Source: Sminthopsis crassicaudata (taxonomy: Eukaryota). From it: 64,000 nucleotides of DNA. How positions within the stretch are numbered: position 1 is the first letter of the stretch; each line of letters begins with the position of its first letter. The stretch spans positions 665,674,958 through 665,738,957 of the forward strand of contig NC_133617.1 of the NCBI RefSeq assembly GCF_048593235.1. The letters run 5' to 3'. The position numbers were made by a program, and so were the translations under genes. Positions 40,748 through 51,610 of this stretch are shown piece by piece. The notes under the pieces are model-generated. The model did not search any database. It was not told the origin of the DNA and saw nothing but the letters and a program-made list of their open reading frames with translations.

Positions 40748-43147
40748 TCAGATAGATGATATTTGATTAGATAGGAAGAAAGGAAGGTAAGAAGGAAGAA
40801 CTTTATATATATAAAAGTATGCAATGAATAAATGCATGCATGCATAAAAGTCTTAACCTTGCCAACTTCCCTCTATTGATAATTCAATTCAGCTCAACAA
40901 ATATGTCCAAAGCACCTACTATGTGTGAAGCACTGTGCAGACTGCCTTCTGGACTTTCTAATTTGCTACAAATCTTCTCTTCTTCAAACCCTATAATATA
41001 ATAGACAATTTATGGAAGCTGTGGCCTTTCCGGGGTCTGCATCCCAGAGGTTTTCTCTGACCCTAAAAATCTCTTCTAGAGATTCCATAGCCTCTCCTGG
41101 GCAGGAGTTTTCTCCTTCCCCACTCCCCTTTATATTGTAGACATTCTTCTAAACCTAGTCTAAATATTTCCTGCAGTCATTCAAACCCAGTTCTCTCTTG
41201 CCTTGTCCTCAACCCTTTCCTCCCAGGATCCTAAATGCCTTTATAGATATTATCATCCCTAGAATAACAGTCATTAATAACATTGACTATATTTTACCTT
41301 GGCTCCGGAGAGCTCAAAGCACAGGTATTATTATCCCTGGGGACAGAGTCCCTGAGACGATGACTGATTTGCCCAAGGTCATTCAGTGTGTCAGGGCTGG
41401 GCGGGGCTAGAGTCTCAGTCCATGGGTCAGTTTAGCTCATGTTTCCCAGATCTACATTGTCTCATCAAAGATGAATACCTTATAACTAACATATGTAACA
41501 CAGGACTATACAGTATCCAAACTATGAAGAAAATATAGGATGAGTGGAGAAGGGGCAGGAGTAGAATATAACACATGGAATTTATACATCACAATGGGAA
41601 GGGACTCTTAAAGTCAAATCCCACAAAGGGAAATGGCTTGTCACAGACCACATGGCAAGTTACAGGCACATTAATAAGCTCATTAAGAAAGTGTTTACAG
41701 AGCACCTATTATAAATATTAACTCTCTAGATTTATGTAGTCCACTTTGCAGAAGTGCTCCTTAAAATATCATGTGGAGAAAGGAATAGAAGTATTATCTC
41801 CATTTCACAAAGGAGGAAATTGAGACTCGGAGACAGAAATGGTTTGGCCAGATTCATACTGCTAGTAAATGTTTGAGCTGGGAAAAGAAGAGTCTTTATG
41901 ATTAAAGGGGACTCAACTCCCTTTTCCATTGCATAAGGTCTCAACTGGCTCTATAGGGACTGAAAAAAGCAGGGAAGCCTCTGCCCTGAAGGAGGCTAGA
42001 GTTTGATTGTCAAAGTCAAGATGCACACACAGGCTACTAGCAGTTAATGTGGGGTTCTTGCCCTCTCTTCTCATCGTTGTTTTTGTTGTTGTTTTTCATT
42101 CTTGAAAAGGACCAGGGCATCAGGGAGAGGGATGCCATGGCAGGCAAGTGAATCTGATGAAGTAAGGGAGGACTGTACAAGGGCACCTAGCTCACTGTCC
42201 CCTCCAGAGACATCCAATCAAGCAATCAAACACAGTAATTTATTAAGTGCCTAATATGGGCCAACCATCATGGTGGGTTTGTTGGGACAAAAAACCAAAA
42301 GTCTCTGCCCTCAATGAGCAGATGATCAGGACCGCCATGGCAGTGCCATGCTGTGGTTCAAAGAGATAAGTCCTATAGGAAGATTGAGTAGGGAGAGGTT
42401 ACTGTGGGCTGGGATGTTGAGTGAGGGTTTCTTGAAAGAAGTGCTATTTGAACTAAGAAATTAGGAGAGAAAACATGCAATATATATGTGGAGATCAAGG
42501 GTAGGGATGGAATCTGGAGTGGGGTGGCTAATCTAGTTAGTAAAGATAATTAGATAAGAATTAGGTTCAGGGAGGAAGGGAAGTGAAAATTCTCCCAGTC
42601 ACCACTGATTTTGTTACTTGTCACTCAAAAACTGCTTACTCCTTTACCACATCCCATCTCCAATTTCTGTTTCTTTGTATTGATCCCTATATCTAAAACA
42701 TTGACCTCCCTCTCCATCCTATCTGCCAACCTTCATTTCTTGAAACTTCTGCCTTCTTTCAAGGCCTGGACCAGCTTCCACTTCTTTCAAGATGTTCTCT
42801 GGCTGAGTCACTCCATCTAGCAGTGATCCTTCCCTGCTCAATCACTCAAAACTTTTGGTTGGTCCTTTAATGTACTTACACAGTCTCTGACTTGCTATTT
42901 AAGTGGACATGGCTTATGAACATGATTTTTCCTCTCTTTTAGAGCATAAGGTCCCAGTAAGGCAGGCAGGGTCATTTTTCATTGTCTTTTATTGTATTTC
43001 TAGTACAGTTCTTTGCATCTGGTTGGGGTCTTGATAAATGTTTGTCAAATTCAATTGAATCTATGAGATCAGACTAATTGAAATTTTGGGGAACCACTGT
43101 GAGGGTGGAAAAGGGAGAAGAATCAAATGGGAGAATTGGTACACAGC

Positions 43148-43483
43148 TATGATGACCGTGTTAGCACCCTGGACACCTCAGAATCAGCTGGAATCAGGAT
43201 AAGCAAAAGTCTTTATTCTTGGTCTTTAGTGGTAGAAGTGAAGGGAATGGCCGCATAGGATCTCCGCCACCTCACCTCCTTATCTCCCGCTCAGAGTAAG
43301 TCTAGCTAGTCTCACTCCACCTCCTAGTCCCTCTCACAATTCTCTGTATACACCAAATAATTGGGCCAGCACAGGATAGTGGGAAGGGCCATTTCTTATA
43401 GAGTATTGTCCAATCAGTAATTAGCCTCAAGTGTTCCATTGTCTGACCTCAGTACATTGACTCAAGAGTTTCAGCCCTTTACA
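43148..43483 (-). repeat. ERV 3' LTR (336 bp)
   Basis: On - it starts tgtaaagggctgaaactcttgag and ends ...ggtcatcata (terminal CA mutated to TA); AATAAA on - (plus-strand tttatt near 43213); homologous to the solo LTR at 49997-50363. Confidence 0.9.
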
Positions 43484-43612
43484 TCATCCACTTTCTTTTG
43501 TTTTAGAATGGTGGCCACTCCATCCCTGACTTCTCAGGGAGGTGAAAACCCTAAAAAGGAGGTGATCATGCCCTCCCTGACTTTTCAGGAAAGGAGGTGA
43601 AAAGCACCAAAG

Positions 43613-44471
43613 GGCAGGGACACTGATACATTGTTAGTGGAATTGTGAATACATCCAGCCATTCTGGAGAGTAATTTGGAACTATGCTCAAAAAGTTATC
43701 AAACTGTGCATATCCTTTGACCCAGCAGTGTTACTACTGGGCTTGTATCTCAAAGAGATCTTAAAGAAGGGAAAGAGACCTGTATGTGCAAGAATGCTTG
43801 TGGCAGACCTCTTTGTGGTGGCCAGAAACTGGAAACTACATGGATGCCCATCAATTGGAGATTGGCTGAATAAATTGGGGTATATGAATATTATGGAATA
43901 TTATTGTTCTGTAAGAAATGACCAACAGGAGGATTTCAGAAAGTCCTGGAGAGACTGACACGAACTGATGCTGAGTGAAATGAGCAGGACCAGGAGATCA
44001 TTATATACTTCAACAATACTATATGATGATCAATTCTGATGGACATGGCCCTCTTCAACAATGAGATGAACCAAATCAGTTCCAATAGAACAGTAATGAA
44101 CTGAACCAGCTATACCCAATGAAAGAATTCTAGGAGATGACTATGAACCACTACATAGAATTCCCAATCCCTCTATTTTTGTCCACCTGCATTTTGGATT
44201 TCCTTCACAGGCTAATTGTACACTTTTTCAAATCCCGATTCTTTTTGTACAGCAAAACAATTGTTTGGACATGTATACATATATTGTATTTAATTTATAC
44301 TTTAACATATTTTACATGTATTGGTCAACCTGCCATCTGTGTGGGGGGAAAGGAGGGGAAAAATTAGAACAAAAGGTTTGGCAATTGTCAATGTTGTAAA
44401 ATTACCCATGCATATATCTGGTAAATAAAAACTATTAAAATAATTTTTAAAAAAAGAAGAAGAAGAAGAAA
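43613..44471 (+). mobile_element. 5'-truncated L1 (ORF2 C-terminus, 3' UTR, A-rich tail) inserted in the provirus
   Basis: ORF 43728-43958 is L1 ORF2 C-terminal-like (LFVVARNWKL.GCPSIGDWLNKL); 14-bp TSD gaaaagcaccaaag at 43599-43612 and 44472-44485. Confidence 0.92.
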
Positions 44472-44734
44472 GAAAAGCACCAAAGTGAAGTAGGGATTGC
44501 TAGCGGGTTTCTGAGCTGAAGTGTCTTATTAGAAACAGGAAAGCACAAACCCATCAGCATGGGAGGTATTACACAAGCACATAGCAATAACACACAGGCT
44601 ATTAGTGATGATTCTCCTCACAGTCAGTGCAGGCTCAATGTTGTGTAACAAACATGAATTGCACGTGCAAGTAGTGATATAACAAACAATATGAATCAAC
44701 ATGGTCTTGTAAAATATTTCCAAAAGTCTTAGAA

Positions 44735-44830
44735 GGAGGGTATATAAACAACAGTCACACATACGCCTTCTTCAGCAGCCAAGAGATAGTGCAAAACCAA
44801 TCTATTGTTCATTGTTTCATGTGTCAGGGA
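44735..44830 (-). pseudogene. env: Env TM immunosuppressive-domain remnant (gamma-type)
   Basis: Manual translation GSLDSLTHETMNNRLVLHYLLAAEEGVC fits the gamma-type ISD pattern (DSL....xNRxxLDxLLAxEGGxC); a frameshifted C-D-C-C-L-Y remnant of CX6CC follows. Confidence 0.7.
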
Positions 44831-45180
44831 ATCCAATGATCCCCACAAGTTTTTGAAGTCTTGCAACAGTTTAATCATTTCTCAGAAAATTCAATGATTT
44901 CTGAGAGTTTAAAAATCCTACACAGTCTTATCATGTCTCAGAGAATCCAAAGATTCCTGAGGGTTTTGAAGTCCTACAATAGTCTTGTCATGTCTCAGAG
45001 AATCCAATGATTCCTGCAGATTTTGAAATCCTGCAACAGTTTAATCATTTCTCAGAGAATCTGATGATTTCTGAGAGTTTAGAAGTCCTACAACAGTCTT
45101 ATCATGTCTCAGAGAATCCAAAGATTCCTGAGGGTTTTGAAGTCCAACAACAATTTTATCCTATCTCAGGGATTCCAAGG
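44824..45180 (-). repeat. Tandem array, 57-bp unit x6 plus partial, ABC-ABC higher-order structure
   Basis: Units start at 44824, 44882, 44938, 44995, 45052, 45109 and 45166 (58, 56, 57, 57, 57, 57 bp); units 1 and 4, 2 and 5, and 3 and 6 share diagnostic bases. Confidence 0.93.
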
Positions 45181-45345
45181 ACTTAGAGAAGGTGGTAAAT
45201 GTTCTTGGTCAAGTTGCTCCTGTACTATATCTAATAAGGCCTGAATTTTATCGCTAGCTAAGGGCCACTGTTTTATCCACACAGTTTTCCATTAGATAGG
45301 AATAGGTGAAAGTATTGGCAGGCCTTCAACAGCAGCCCTGCCTAA
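45172..45345 (-). pseudogene. pol: Reverse transcriptase N-terminal fragment
   Basis: Manual translation ...[45 protein letters not shown] matches the betaretroviral RT start (WxxQWPL..EKL..L..LV.EQL..GH....SPWNSP); truncated at the tandem array. Confidence 0.88.
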
Positions 45346-46210
45346 AAAACTGAAGTACTCCTTTTTAATCCTAATTGTTGTAAAATGTCTATTCCCCACA
45401 GATTGATAGGGATTGTTTCAACTATAAAATGAGTAAAAACTCCTGTTTCACCTTCAAATATCCATCTCAAAGGAGTAGCACTAGCTTCAGCTGCTATTGA
45501 TCTTCCTACAGCAGACATGTAGGTGTCTGCCTTAATCTTTGGCCAGTGACTGGGCCAGTTGGCACCTCTAATGACTGTATGATCTGCACCAGTGTCTACC
45601 AATCCTTCTAATGGTATGCCATTTATATAGATAGCGAGCATAGGTCAGTCAGCTGTCACAGCTGCTGTCCAGTATAATCCTGGATTTTGTTGCTTGGAGT
45701 CAGAATCTGAGCAACTATCGCCAGATTGCTTGTTAGGAGTCTATATCAATAAACCTGATACTACTACTCCTCCTGGTTGATAGGTCACACATTGTCTACC
45801 TGTATTAGTGACTGGGATATTATCTACACATTCCCCAGTTTCCCACATCAGTGTATGGATGGACACAGTTTTGTTAGTACACTCAGGAGTTGAAATGGTC
45901 AAGTCTACTGTGCCTGGAGGCAAGAGATCCACAGGCTACAGAGGAACAGATTTCACCTCTCCAGGGGTATCTCAGTTGTCCCAGTTGCATACAACTCTAT
46001 TCTCCCTAATTGTAGTCCCTTTCTCCCATCAGGTTGCTTCCTGGCTGATTGATTGTGTAATTTCTTTCTCCCATCAGATGGCTTCCTGGCTGATTGGTCA
46101 TGTCTGGGTTCTGAACTTCTAGGCACTCTCTGGGTGTAGCATCGTCTGCCATCATGCCCCAAGTATTTTTTGTCTTGGGCCCTGGGGCTGGGCCCCTCAA
46201 TCCATTTCCC
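45342..46210 (-). pseudogene. pro: pro: degenerate dUTPase-like domain plus aspartic protease
   Basis: Protease GLVDTGAD...NLWGIDIL (45342-45641); in-frame upstream region with three stops (TAG, TAG, TGA) and one frameshift near 45965; begins at slippery site GGGAAAT (46204-46210 on -). Confidence 0.88.
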
Positions 46211-47088
46211 TGAATCAGTCTACATCCTGATGCCCAATGGAAGCCTCTGTTGCATTTTGGACATGGGGTATTGGATCTTGTTTTCCCACCCTGTTTTCTT
46301 ACTCTGTCTCTATGGCAACATTGAGCTTTCAGATGCCCTACTTTACCACATTGAAAGCATTGACAAGTCTCTCTGGAAGTCCCTTGCCAAAAGGGACCCT
46401 GTATTCCCATGTTGGGATCTTGGAAAGTCTGCATCATAGCCTGGCTATAAAAGGTAATTGTGCCCATTGTGGCACAGCATCTTATGATCTCCTCTAAAGG
46501 AGCATTCTTACATAATCCTAGCATAATCCTTCTGCAAACCTCATTAGCATTTTCTTTAGCAAGTTGCCTTATCATAATGTTTGTTATTGCATTTTCACCA
46601 TTAGTTCGTATGACACCTGTCTGCACACATGCCATAAAATCAGCAAATGGTTCATTTGGCCCTTGTGCTATTTTTGTTTTGGCCTCACCCTTGTCATTTT
46701 TACCTGGGAGAAAAGCCCATGCTTTGATAGCAGCAGCAGCAATTTGCTCATATGTTGCTAATTGGTAATTAATCTGTACTGAAATGTCTGCATAAAAACC
46801 CACACTTGTTAGTCGGTCACAGGTGATTGGAGGATTAACTCCACTATGACTATTTTATTGGACTTGTATCCTACAGAGCTCACTATATTCAGAAAGCCAC
46901 AACAAATTTTGTCCAGGTTCTAAGCATCTCCTTGGTATAGATTTCCAGTCCCTAGGGGTTAAGACTTCATAAGCCAAATTCTGTAATAACATCTTAATAT
47001 AAGCTGATGTAGCCCCATAAAGAGAGCAAGCCTTTTTCAGATCTTTGAGGATGTCTATATCAAAAGGAGTGTATCTTCTACTTTCTGG
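46006..47088 (-). pseudogene. gag: gag (capsid and nucleocapsid; MA region deleted)
   Basis: PFDIDILKDLKKACSLYGATSAYIKMLL...LTPRDWKSI (CA N-terminus), one in-frame TAA at 46855-46857, MHR IAQGPNEPFADF, and two CCHC knuckles (CFQCGKVGHLKAQC, CPKCNRGFHWASGC). Confidence 0.93.
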
Positions 47089-48414
47089 CTCCTCCTCCTA
47101 GTCCCTCCCATACTTCTCTATATACACCAAACGATTGGGCCAGCACAGAATAGTGAGAAGGGCCATTTTCCAAGCATATTCTAATAGAGTATTGTCCAAT
47201 CAGTAATTAGCCTCAAGTGCTCAATTGTCCCACCTCAGTGCATAGACTCAAGAGTTTCAGCCCTTTACACACAGCTTCTCTAGATTGGACCTGAGCCTAG
47301 GTCATGGTGGAAGCTCCTGTTTACTCAACTGTCAACTCCAGAAGAAAAGAGAGATGTTACTGTAAGACAAGAGGAAACTAAAATTCATTGGGCAAGTTTT
47401 TCACATAGACAGTTAATCCCTCTTCCTGAGGAGCTAGGGAATTCATCCCTGGCTATTCTGCTCGCATCCTGGCTGAGTTGGCCCTCTCAGGGTCCTTGGG
47501 AGATACTAGCATAGATTTAGGATTGGAAAGGCCCTCATAGATGATCTCATCTGGCCTCTCATTTTATAGATCAGAAAACTGAGGCTCACCAAAGGTCACC
47601 CAGGATCTAAGTGGAAGAGTTGGATTCAAACTCAAGTCTCTTGACTCCAGATCCCTCTTTCTTTCTACTATATCAAGAGGGCAAGGCTGCCAGAGTGCTG
47701 GTCCTCCCTTTCCAGGAGATCCACCTTCCACCTTGCTGGCTCTGACTTTGGTAGAGGAGTGATTAGGGTGCCCATCCAAGAGCCAAGTAGCTATATGTAG
47801 GAAATCATCCATTAAAGAGTCACCTGGCCCCATGCCCACAGCCCTGCTTCAGGTAAGGAGCACCTGGCCCCACCCTTCTCTCCTCTCCCTCCGCCCACAG
47901 CCCTAGGAAGAGTGAATCTGGGCTGCTTTTGCCAAATAGAGGGGAAAGTTGGCTTCCCTGGGCAGCCCTGGTCTCCCTCTCCTCTGTGTCCTCTATTTCC
48001 TCCTCCCCAGCCTTTCAGCCTTGCCCTAAACTCATACCACTGCCATCTCCTGACCATCAACTCTGAGGAAAAAATGGATCACTCCTATCTCCTTCTATAG
48101 AGCTCTTTCTCCATCCAGCCATTATCCTATTTCAGAATTAGGAATCTCCGTATGACTCTTTTTTTTATAATCCTCCATACCCTCTCAAGTCCTAATCCCT
48201 TCTGTTTCCCTATCCCATCTTTTGAAAGGGCAGCACATTAGCCAAAAATAAACAAACAAACAAATGGGTAAGTAAATAAATAAATAAATAAATGAATTAA
48301 TAAATAAAAAGGAGTACTGTACTAGCAGTCTGCAAATAAGTTATGGATGTTATCTCTGATATGTATGTGAATTAAATTAATTCAACATTTATCTGGTTCT
48401 TCCCACATAAAAGT

Positions 48415-48790: not shown

Positions 48791-51610
48791 AAGAGCTGCA
48801 CTAATGCTAGGAAGATGAGGAAAGACTTCTGGTAAAAGGTGGCACCTGCACTGAACCCTGAAGGAAGCTGAGGGATCCTCAGGGATGGGTGGAGGTAAGT
48901 AGGGAACACATTCCAAAGACAGGAGATAGAATGCCAAGTTCAGGGGAAAGTTAGTGGCTAGTTCAGCTGGAATGTAGCATACCAGGAGGGGAATGCTGGG
49001 AAATCCATGGAGAAGGCAGGCTGTAAAGGGTCTGAGGAGTTTGAATTTTCTCTTGGAGACCAGAGGAAACTGCTGAAGGTCCTTCAGCAGGACAGTGACA
49101 TGGTCAGGTTTGTGCTTTTAAGGAGTTATTTTGCCAACCTGGTGAAGAAAAACTGGATTAGGAAGGAGAAAGGGGAATTAGGAGACTCCTAAAATAGTCC
49201 AAATAAGAGGGAACAAAGGTCCAGTCTAAAGTGTCATTCACATGATTGGAGAGTAGGGGATGAATGCCAGAAATGCTGTGAAGGTCAAATAGACAAGAGT
49301 TAGCCACCATTTTGCTTTGTGGGAAAAGGTCAGGAGAGGTATAGAGGAGAGGCAAGAGGCAAGGATGACTATTGGATTGAGAATCCATGTAACTGGGAGA
49401 TGATAACTAGAGAAGCTTAGAAAAGAGAGCTAAGAAAAGGCCATTGAATTAACAGTTAAGAAATAGTTGGTAATCTTAGAGTCAGGATGTATAGTTGGAA
49501 GCCAGAATATAAGAGGTGACTAGAAGGAAAAAACATGGAGTCAATAAGCATAAACAACTTTTTCTAAAAGTTTAGCTGTGGAAAGAAGGGAAGATCTAGA
49601 ATTATAGGGTAAAATTAAGGTTTTTAAAAGAATGAAGAGATCTAAGCAGATTTGTAAGCAACAATTAAGGAGCACATTGCTATGTCCACTTCTTTTTTCT
49701 ATTTGTTTAATCTTTCCCATGTTTTTTCCCTTTTGTTCTGATTTTTCTCTCCCAATATAATTCATAAAGCAATGGGTATTAAAAATAAAATTGCTACAAA
49801 ACAAAAACAATTAAGAAGCCACTAGATATGGAAAGACTGAAGATGAAAACTATCCAAGTTCCGAAAGGGTCATAAGCTTCTAGATTTAGAACTAAAAGAC
49901 ACCTTAGAACTCATCAATGCAGCCCTCCCATTTCACAGACAAAGAAAGTAAGTGATTTTTTCTGATCTTAGATGGATCCAACCCAGGTTCTCTGACTGTG
50001 ATGACCATGTTAGCACCCTGGACACCCCAGAATCAGCTGGAGTCAGGATAAGCAAAAGTCTTTACTCTTGGTCTTCAGAGGTAGAAGTCAAGGGGATGAA
50101 AGCAGAATCTCTGCCACCTCACCTCTTCATCTCCCACCCAGAGTTGAGTCTGGCTAGTCTCAACTGCACCTCCTAGTCCCTCCCACAATTCTCTGTATAC
50201 ACCAAATGATTGGGCCAGCACAGGATAGTGGGAAGGGCCATTTCCCAAGCTTATTCTTATAGAGTATTATCCAATTAGTAATTAGCCTCAAGTGTTCAAT
50301 TGTCCAGCCTCAAGTGCTCAATTGTCTGACCTCAGTGCATCAACTCAGTTTCAGCCCTTTACATCTGACTCTACAATTTTTCCCACTTATTAAGTGTTAC
50401 CTCACAGGAGATGAAATGGAAAAGAATGAAGGGCACAAGTGGAGAGGTTGGTTTTGACATGGACAAAGCTCACCTCTTTGTTAAGAGACTGGAGTAAAAT
50501 GTGAGAGAATAGCATATGATGTAGACAGGTTCTGAGGTTTAGAGTAGGGAAAAAGAAGGAATTCCTAATAGCCTCAGTTTGCTCAACAGAAGAAAATAAG
50601 ACAAAAGCCCATGCTTAGAAAAAGGGAGAGGAGATAGTGTTGGGAACTTGATGGAAAAAGAAAGCTTAAAATGTTACTGGAGGAAACCTGACAAAGAGCC
50701 AATTAGGAGAAAATGAAAGCATCTGGTTAGTAATAAAGATGCAGTTGATATTAGTTAACATAAATTCATAGTGGATCCAATACATACACTTAAGTGGCTT
50801 CCTTCAATGGCATTTGGCAGCTCAGGACTTGAATCAGAAGGCAGATGGTAGGAATAACCAGACACGAGTGGAACAACTGTATAAAAAACAGAGAATATGG
50901 TATAATTGAACTGGTTAACTAACCATTAGATCAAGAAAGTGAGACCAGTGGGAAAACTATAGATTGTGACAAAAATGAAGAAGAGGCTTTAAGTGAAAAA
51001 GATAGAGAAAGAAATGAAAGACCAAGAAACTATGATCAGAAAAAGTTCAGGATTCTGAATCACAGGATTTATGAGTGACTTATGAGTTGATCATGTTATG
51101 ATGTGAGCGACAGAAATAAAGTGAAGGTGAAGATCATGAGATATTTAGAAAGTGGATATACGGGGAATTCAGGGCTTTTGAATGGACATGAATATGGATA
51201 TTTAGGTAGAGATGAACACTGAGTTGAGTACTGAATTCCCTGAGATAGAAAGAATAAACTAGGGACCAGTAGACATCATTAGGATCTGGATTGGTTGGCA
51301 GAGACAAATGGAGAGGAAATATCAAAGAACTAAGTTACTCATGATGCAATGATAAAACAGATACAGTATTTTTTGGAGAAAGCTAGCTTTGATGAATGCA
51401 AGGTGGAAACAATGTGATAAAAAGTCTAATGGAGAGAAGTCTTTCAACTTTAGAGGTGTGGTTTCACAGGGCACAAAGCAAAGGGAGGTCAGGGCTGGAA
51501 AGACAATCAGAAGGAGTAAGGCTAAGGTGAATGGCGATGAGAGAGTAGGGAGTGGTAGCGGAAAAGGGGTTTTCACCTTGGCAGACATGACTGTGAATCA
51601 CAGGAATTAG
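48790..51610 (-). mobile_element. Fragmented ancient L2 LINE (3' part to endonuclease region), interrupted by younger insertions
   Basis: Purine-rich plus strand typical of reverse L2; the minus strand at 51050-51300 resembles a decayed AP-endonuclease region; interrupted by an L1 tail (~49680-49810), a MIR and the solo LTR. Confidence 0.5.
49997..50363 (-). mobile_element. Solo LTR, same family as the 43148-47269 provirus
   Basis: TG...CA termini; 6-bp TSD TCTGAC at 49991-49996 and 50364-50369; AGTAAA poly-A variant on -; small internal duplication of 'ctcaagtg.tcaattgtc'. Confidence 0.95.

Follow-up and report, generated by a model that had tools for sequence, protein, structure and literature searches.

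The tandem array described here, six units of about 57 bp leading into the immunosuppressive domain (ISD) remnant of a retroviral Env, is a family-wide, non-coding and apparently undescribed repeat in a known family of endogenous retroviruses (ERVs). It was identified in a 64,000-nucleotide stretch of the Sminthopsis crassicaudata genome (the window, to which unprefixed positions refer), within an element that sequence comparison assigns to MEBrv 3, a dasyurid family lacking env (Harding 2024). Whilst its units are likely to descend from env coding sequence, replicating lineages of the family do not maintain a reading frame through them, and the persistence and predicted RNA structure of the array bear on whether it is a passenger or a functional element.

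The array and its provirus

TRF reports two solutions at 44817-45178, one of 57 bp in 6.4 copies (77% matches) and one of 171 bp in 2.1 copies (86%), and together with translation of the minus strand this confirms the six-unit array that the initial annotation had described as leading into the ISD. On the minus strand the units start at 45175, 45118, 45061, 45004, 44947 and 44891 and measure, in that order, 57, 57, 57, 57, 56 and 58 bp (342 bp in total), the -1 and +1 indels lying, as first noted, in the two units nearest the ISD. In-frame stops occur within units 1 and 3, and the ISD text, DSLTHETMNNRLVLHYLLAAEEGVC in minus-strand translation, follows directly from 44833. Because it is found throughout the family, the array is far beyond chance. 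The units had also been read as a duplicated trimer, and two of the three pairings stand, units 2/5 (4 differences) and 3/6 (8 differences) each being mutual best matches, whereas units 1 and 4, with 9 differences, are no closer than units 2 and 4, with 8. A single duplication of a three-unit block may have generated this arrangement in the window copy; the resulting ABC-ABC order is local to that copy and is not borne out as a trait of the family.

The array is carried by a provirus of 4.1 kb bounded by a 6-bp target-site duplication (Table 1). Its two U3 copies are 84.5% identical and the insertion is therefore old. Two deletions have shortened this copy, one running from U3 to mid-gag and the other from the first RT motif to the array; the latter joint was seen in one of 30 loci, the window locus itself, and is private to that locus, where a separate deletion would have fused RT to the first array junction. 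Side-by-side examination of three RT-bearing and four array-bearing loci places this joint at a short shared stretch. Downstream of the ISD lies a later insertion of about 850 bp that is missing from relatives.

Table 1. Features of the provirus, listed in the direction of its minus-strand reading
Feature	Position	Strand	Basis
Target-site duplication, 6 bp, 5' side	47270..47275	.	Same hexamer at both LTR ends
5' LTR, U3 only, fused to mid-gag; without R-U5, primer site and 5' gag	47089..47269	-	84.5% against 3' LTR over 181 columns
gag 3' part (CA-NC), degraded, end approximate	46190..47086	-	Motifs at 47076 and 46359; match to MEBrv 3 Gag by eye
pro, degraded, start approximate	45342..46170	-	Protease motif at 45602; frame end STSVF*
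pol 5' stub, last motif RT SPWN	45176..45341	-	Translation, landmarks
Deletion joint between RT and first array junction	45170..45181	-	Shared stretch of 7 identical bases plus near matches
Six-unit array, probably derived from Env TM pre-ISD helix	44834..45175	-	TRF, translation, folding, register test
ISD remnant without CX6CC, ending at a stop common to most of the family	44729..44833	-	Translation, sequence comparison
Family-wide 3' internal sequence	44472..44728	-	Alignment of relatives reaches about 44472
Later insertion, likely LINE/SINE fragment	43618..44471	.	Gap against relatives; dispersed matches in window
Second small repeat, unit about 50 bp, present twice	43510..43617	-	Sequence; fold of a young copy
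Polypurine tract	43484..43499	-	Sequence
3' LTR	43148..43483	-	Sequence; 84.5% against 5' U3
Target-site duplication, 6 bp, 3' side	43142..43147	.	Same hexamer at both LTR ends

The second small repeat is present in three copies in one young provirus (L124), just before the polypurine tract, where it is likewise predicted to form hairpins; the 250-nt region holding it folds at -89 kcal/mol, a value without a shuffle control. A separate LTR of the same family, with 81% identity to the 3' LTR and an internal 22-bp duplication, lies 3 kb upstream of the provirus (49996-50365) and looks like a solo LTR. The gag/pro overlap contains an in-frame 45-bp direct repeat (46011-46100) that also occurs in the published MEBrv 3 representative.

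Family membership and env ancestry

Assignment to MEBrv 3 follows from a comparison, made by eye, in which the Gag, Pro and Pol text (including the pol C-terminus), the leader, the ISD remnant and the 3' region match the published representative, and the window family shows the MEBrv 3 trait of an ISD remnant beyond the pol end with no env open reading frame. The family is described as env-less, recently active and of very high copy number; beyond pol it has a gamma-like ISD, and most of the ERVs in dasyurid genomes are reported to belong to it (PMC11334065). It has thousands of copies in the present genome: searches returned 3,960 candidates with the array as query (40 scored), 5,732 with the ISD peptide (150 scored) and 3,519 with the leader (40 scored), and an integrase-similarity search returned 18,410 (150 scored), many of which have pol open over 907 aa, so that the lineage is not the non-autonomous one originally suggested. 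In relatives the usual order is pol end, short leader, array; SU is absent both from them and from the published representative, in keeping with the earlier proposal of an element lacking it. Compared with that representative, the window copy is old and doubly deleted.

Uniqueness to this locus, which would have spoken against the initial annotation, is not what was found, the array being present family-wide. The published representative, from a quoll, itself carries an array, which by our own count of the printed sequence comprises eight units of 43 bp plus 57 and 49 bp (PMC11334065). The main text of that paper, figures aside, reports the ISD and makes no mention of a tandem, array, heptad or minisatellite, and the annotation of its sequence record is limited to LTRs and gag/pro/pol, with no array (PMC11334065); the literature searched, with Dfam, Repbase and subscription papers outside its scope, yielded no prior description. 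Five near-identical array-bearing copies (L009-L012 and L014) lie within 0.4 Mb of one another (C1:737.9-738.3 Mb), and are likely to reflect segmental amplification.

Derivation of the array from the Env TM helix before the ISD, as first proposed, is likely on sequence grounds. The best ungapped register of the units was the expected one, the 19 residues before the ISD, in all six full-length Env TM stretches tested (11 distinct), although scores were modest, with medians of 13-20 against a shuffled 95th percentile of 18-20, and about the 95th percentile was reached in three of the six. PDB matches (syncytin-2, MLV p15E and others) were in register and, at E values of 0.5-1.2, not significant. 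No close full-length parent env was found in the genome by a TLV_coat search, which led to gamma-type envs, ten of the 11 compared sharing only 25-27% identity in the ISD; neither the window peptide nor a natural in-frame copy found a match in protein searches, and no Env family was matched in Pfam. What speaks for an env origin is therefore the motif, the position and the modest register scores. Hits to Colicin Ia and OspC (E 0.04-1.2) were taken as chance. Relative to gamma-type Env TM (HR1-ISD-CX6CC, as in syncytin-2 and MLV p15E), the array unit and ISD align in register, weakly, both with PDB entries and with Env copies of the genome itself; unlike it, the array is without SU, fusion peptide and CX6CC, its frame is broken, and 19 is not a heptad multiple. 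The genome also contains many gamma-type envs of other families whose frames are open over about 690-710 aa (L031-L060).

Reading frame in older and young copies

Whether a progenitor once made an extended coiled-coil/ISD peptide lacking SU, as the initial annotation suggested, can be judged from two sets of copies. The older set comprised 88 loci, of which seven were dropped (the window locus itself, two duplicates and four near-identical copies from a cluster); of the 81 left, 76 were parsed, and 73 of these held at least one unit. The young set consisted of 80 of 150 loci picked by integrase similarity, not by the array, 60 of them with a pol frame of 907-909 aa and 20 with a shorter one; 78 were analysed, the two left out being those in whose stretch no ISD was located.

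Some features of the older copies would suit a coding progenitor: 178 of 214 inner units are 57 bp long, an ATG lies upstream of the array in the same frame, and four of the 73 arrays end in a 57-bp unit. Against this, the last unit is 58 bp in 58 of the 73, and total array length is divisible by 3 in nine. The +1 before the ISD is thus inherited family-wide while the -1 is private to the window locus; their cancellation, which had been read as restoring the frame, is therefore chance. In young copies the lengths are non-triplet for the most part, an outcome that the initial annotation had itself named as telling against coding: 40 of 486 intervals are 57 bp, most being 55, 56 or 58 bp, array lengths fall about equally into the three frames (27/24/27 modulo 3, n = 78), and the distance from junction to ISD is off frame in 76 of 78. 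The same holds for most of the published representative.

Nor does the sequence within the frame favour coding. A stop follows 27 codons after the Met of the ISD frame in 57 of 76 older copies, and CX6CC was found after the ISD in none of these 76. Over 3,000 cross-locus pairs of older copies the env-frame dN/dS is 0.93, a value that carries little weight by itself, much of the change having arisen after insertion; among six unit types identical in at least two loci it is 0.68, from very few data. Values for the other two frames (0.54 and 0.57) are not taken as coding because those frames contain stops in most units. Env-frame stops occur in 21 of 178 older units, and 119 of 157 stop-free units contain proline. 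Replicating lineages do not keep the reading frame, and for the lineages sampled the coding question is settled, the proposal of a coding progenitor being largely refuted there; the extended ISD peptide, which was the source of the original excitement, is absent.

A different frame, of 73 codons (L161:968-1186, minus strand), is absent from the window copy. It begins immediately downstream of a site resembling a splice acceptor, overlaps the end of pol, terminates within the first hairpin and holds an Arg-rich stretch. The frame is open in 30 of 40 young copies, with the first 70 codons open in 17 of 66 older ones, and its product presumably resembles a beta-type Env signal peptide or Rec/Rem. 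It gave no Pfam match at E <= 10 and no Atlas hit, and could be a by-product of the pol overlap. At the start of this frame the published MEBrv 3 representative has GTG (PMC11334065). An uncharacterised 152-aa gene model of the Tasmanian devil (P0001) ends in sequence matching the frame and is probably an ERV fragment caught as an exon. Four RNA runs, their kind guessed, gave short contigs only; three of the pieces listed terminate very close, by a few bases, to the predicted splice acceptor, but contig breaks could account for this equally well and the pieces are not taken as evidence.

Unit turnover, the junction hairpin and their interpretation

Unit number varies from copy to copy. Older copies hold 0-8 units as counted by the parser, those picked by the leader averaging 3.2, and young copies average 6.2, with at least four units in 74 of 78 and fewer than two in none; very long arrays of 13, 15 and at least 17 units also occur. 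Unit types and their order are common to independent loci, and the last two units are diverged from the remainder. Turnover in young copies, whose flanks are 0.5% apart, is fast: 67 distinct arrays were counted among 77 copies, and ten distinct arrays, of 3-7 units, occur among 12 copies whose 400-nt flanks are identical.

We interpret the array as a non-coding repeat that is turned over by RT template switching and is probably a passenger, a reading in which we place about even confidence. Both the fast turnover and the failure of older and young arrays alike to keep a frame fit this interpretation, as do the size and variation of the units, since retroviral repeats of 50-75 bp vary in copy number (PMC3187697). 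The env codons for Q-E-S-L-D-S-L would happen to form an inverted repeat, at which RT may stall or switch and then re-anneal one unit out of register, so losing or gaining units; hairpins are reported to be recombination hot spots. The 57-bp size of the older units would be a legacy of the former gene, which decayed to 55/56/58 or 43 bp where lineages kept replicating. Template switching is proposed here from sequence patterns, and unequal exchange after insertion could contribute.

The persistence of the array is harder to reconcile with a passenger. Template switching by RT mostly removes repeats, a 110-bp direct repeat being lost in 41% of single cycles and deletion falling below 1% at less than 82% identity (PMC3187697), yet the arrays of young copies are large. 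In a crude random walk with assumed parameters, two or more units survived in 12-35% of lineages when losses were not favoured and in 0-14% when they were. Since the last two units are diverged, a floor of two to three units could be explained by the identity threshold of about 82%. Persistence is suggestive of selection and is not decisive. Unstable retroviral direct repeats and LTR enhancers resemble the array in unit size and copy-number variation, but these are mostly lost or are U3 enhancers (PMC3187697), whereas the MEBrv 3 array is internal, probably env-derived and has persisted in two dasyurid lineages.

Each unit junction is an inverted repeat of ten pairs, with one bulge and a four-base loop, that is predicted to form an RNA hairpin. 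All six window junctions, from 45118 to 44833, are predicted to fold in this way (z -1.4 to -3.1), and in the predicted structure 93% of stem cells are paired across 214 older inner junctions and 97.6% across 408 young ones. The junction, with its predicted hairpin, is common to all lineages. The exact 25-nt hairpin sequence is found in 310 of the 408 young inner junctions and in 3,716 copies genome-wide (reversed control, 0), and is unchanged in most 43-bp units of the published quoll element (PMC11334065).

These predictions bear on a second explanation, akin to an RNA-element idea in the initial annotation, which we consider a real possibility at somewhat less than even probability: that a repeat born by slippage is now a selected cis RNA element, its row of hairpins acting in export of unspliced RNA, in stability or packaging, or in damping the upstream splice acceptor. 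Selection of this kind would account for persistence against a deletion bias, for the larger arrays of young copies, and for the retention of one hairpin between spacers that have been remodelled differently in this genome and in the quoll element. Inner junctions have ten pairs and the last, nearest the original env sequence, eight, so that the stem is longer in amplified units, although palindrome-templated mutation is another possible source of the longer stem. Pairing survives in five of the seven common stem variants, and of 265 stem changes 106 leave a pair intact where 44 would be expected, these counts not being independent. Recurrent indels are placed in the spacer in 16 of 22 cases, subject to the caveat that the spacer holds homopolymer runs, and five of the other six fall at boundary columns. 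Six single-unit older copies are scattered in the tree, a weak indication given its star-like form.

Other measures show little sign of structural selection and are more readily accommodated by a passenger. Compensatory covariation was not found in the stem, where two-sided pair changes are nearly absent, affecting at most two of 214 older junctions at any pair, and one-sided G-U changes are common. The difference in diversity between hairpin (0.115) and spacer (0.16) is not significant (p = 0.09), single-locus indels fall in the hairpin in 10 of 36 cases against about 16 expected, and folds equally good were obtained from 7% of shuffled units. In 30 of 214 older junctions a common variant disrupts one pair, in 53 of 408 young junctions a variant disrupts another, and three loci gave no Rfam match at E <= 1. 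An export signal could equally well reside in the 3' region that is not repeated or in the second small repeat.

The case for an RNA element rests on persistence and position. The MusD MTE, the MPMV CTE and the IAP RTE, all of them transport elements of beta-like retroelements, lie upstream of the 3' LTR. By analogy, the array could be a structured RNA between pol and the 3' LTR, as in CTE/RTE/MTE elements: it shares the position of the SERV-K/MER11 CTE, like which it is a predicted multi-stem-loop RNA upstream of the 3' LTR, and the MusD MTE, MPMV CTE and MLV PTE are also of multi-stem-loop form (PMC11379458). Unlike the CTE, MTE and RTE, the array is multiplied env coding sequence of variable copy number, and no sequence match linking it to them was found in Rfam.

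It is improbable that the array is an ordinary host minisatellite that changed mainly after insertion, by chromosomal slippage or unequal exchange: one of the five near-identical C1 copies does differ in unit make-up, and a few arrays are very long, but young copies vary as widely as old ones that have spent far longer in the chromosome, and independent loci share unit types and order. A progenitor encoding the extended peptide is, on the frame evidence above, extremely improbable.

A wider model can be offered tentatively, as a doubtful but possible extension: after env was lost, 57 bases of dead env may have become a self-amplifying row of hairpins that now acts in multimeric form as a signal for export or packaging; RT slippage and selection would together set its copy number, and the small Arg-rich upstream peptide would possibly read it. 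At the least, the array changes fast enough to serve as a marker by which thousands of insertions can be typed and dated, and it preserves a natural record of template switching by RT. Should it be an RNA signal, an env-less superspreader would have put env coding sequence to new use in cis; and if the row acts in export or packaging, the loss of env would, beyond removing a cost, have supplied a part for genomic superspreading.
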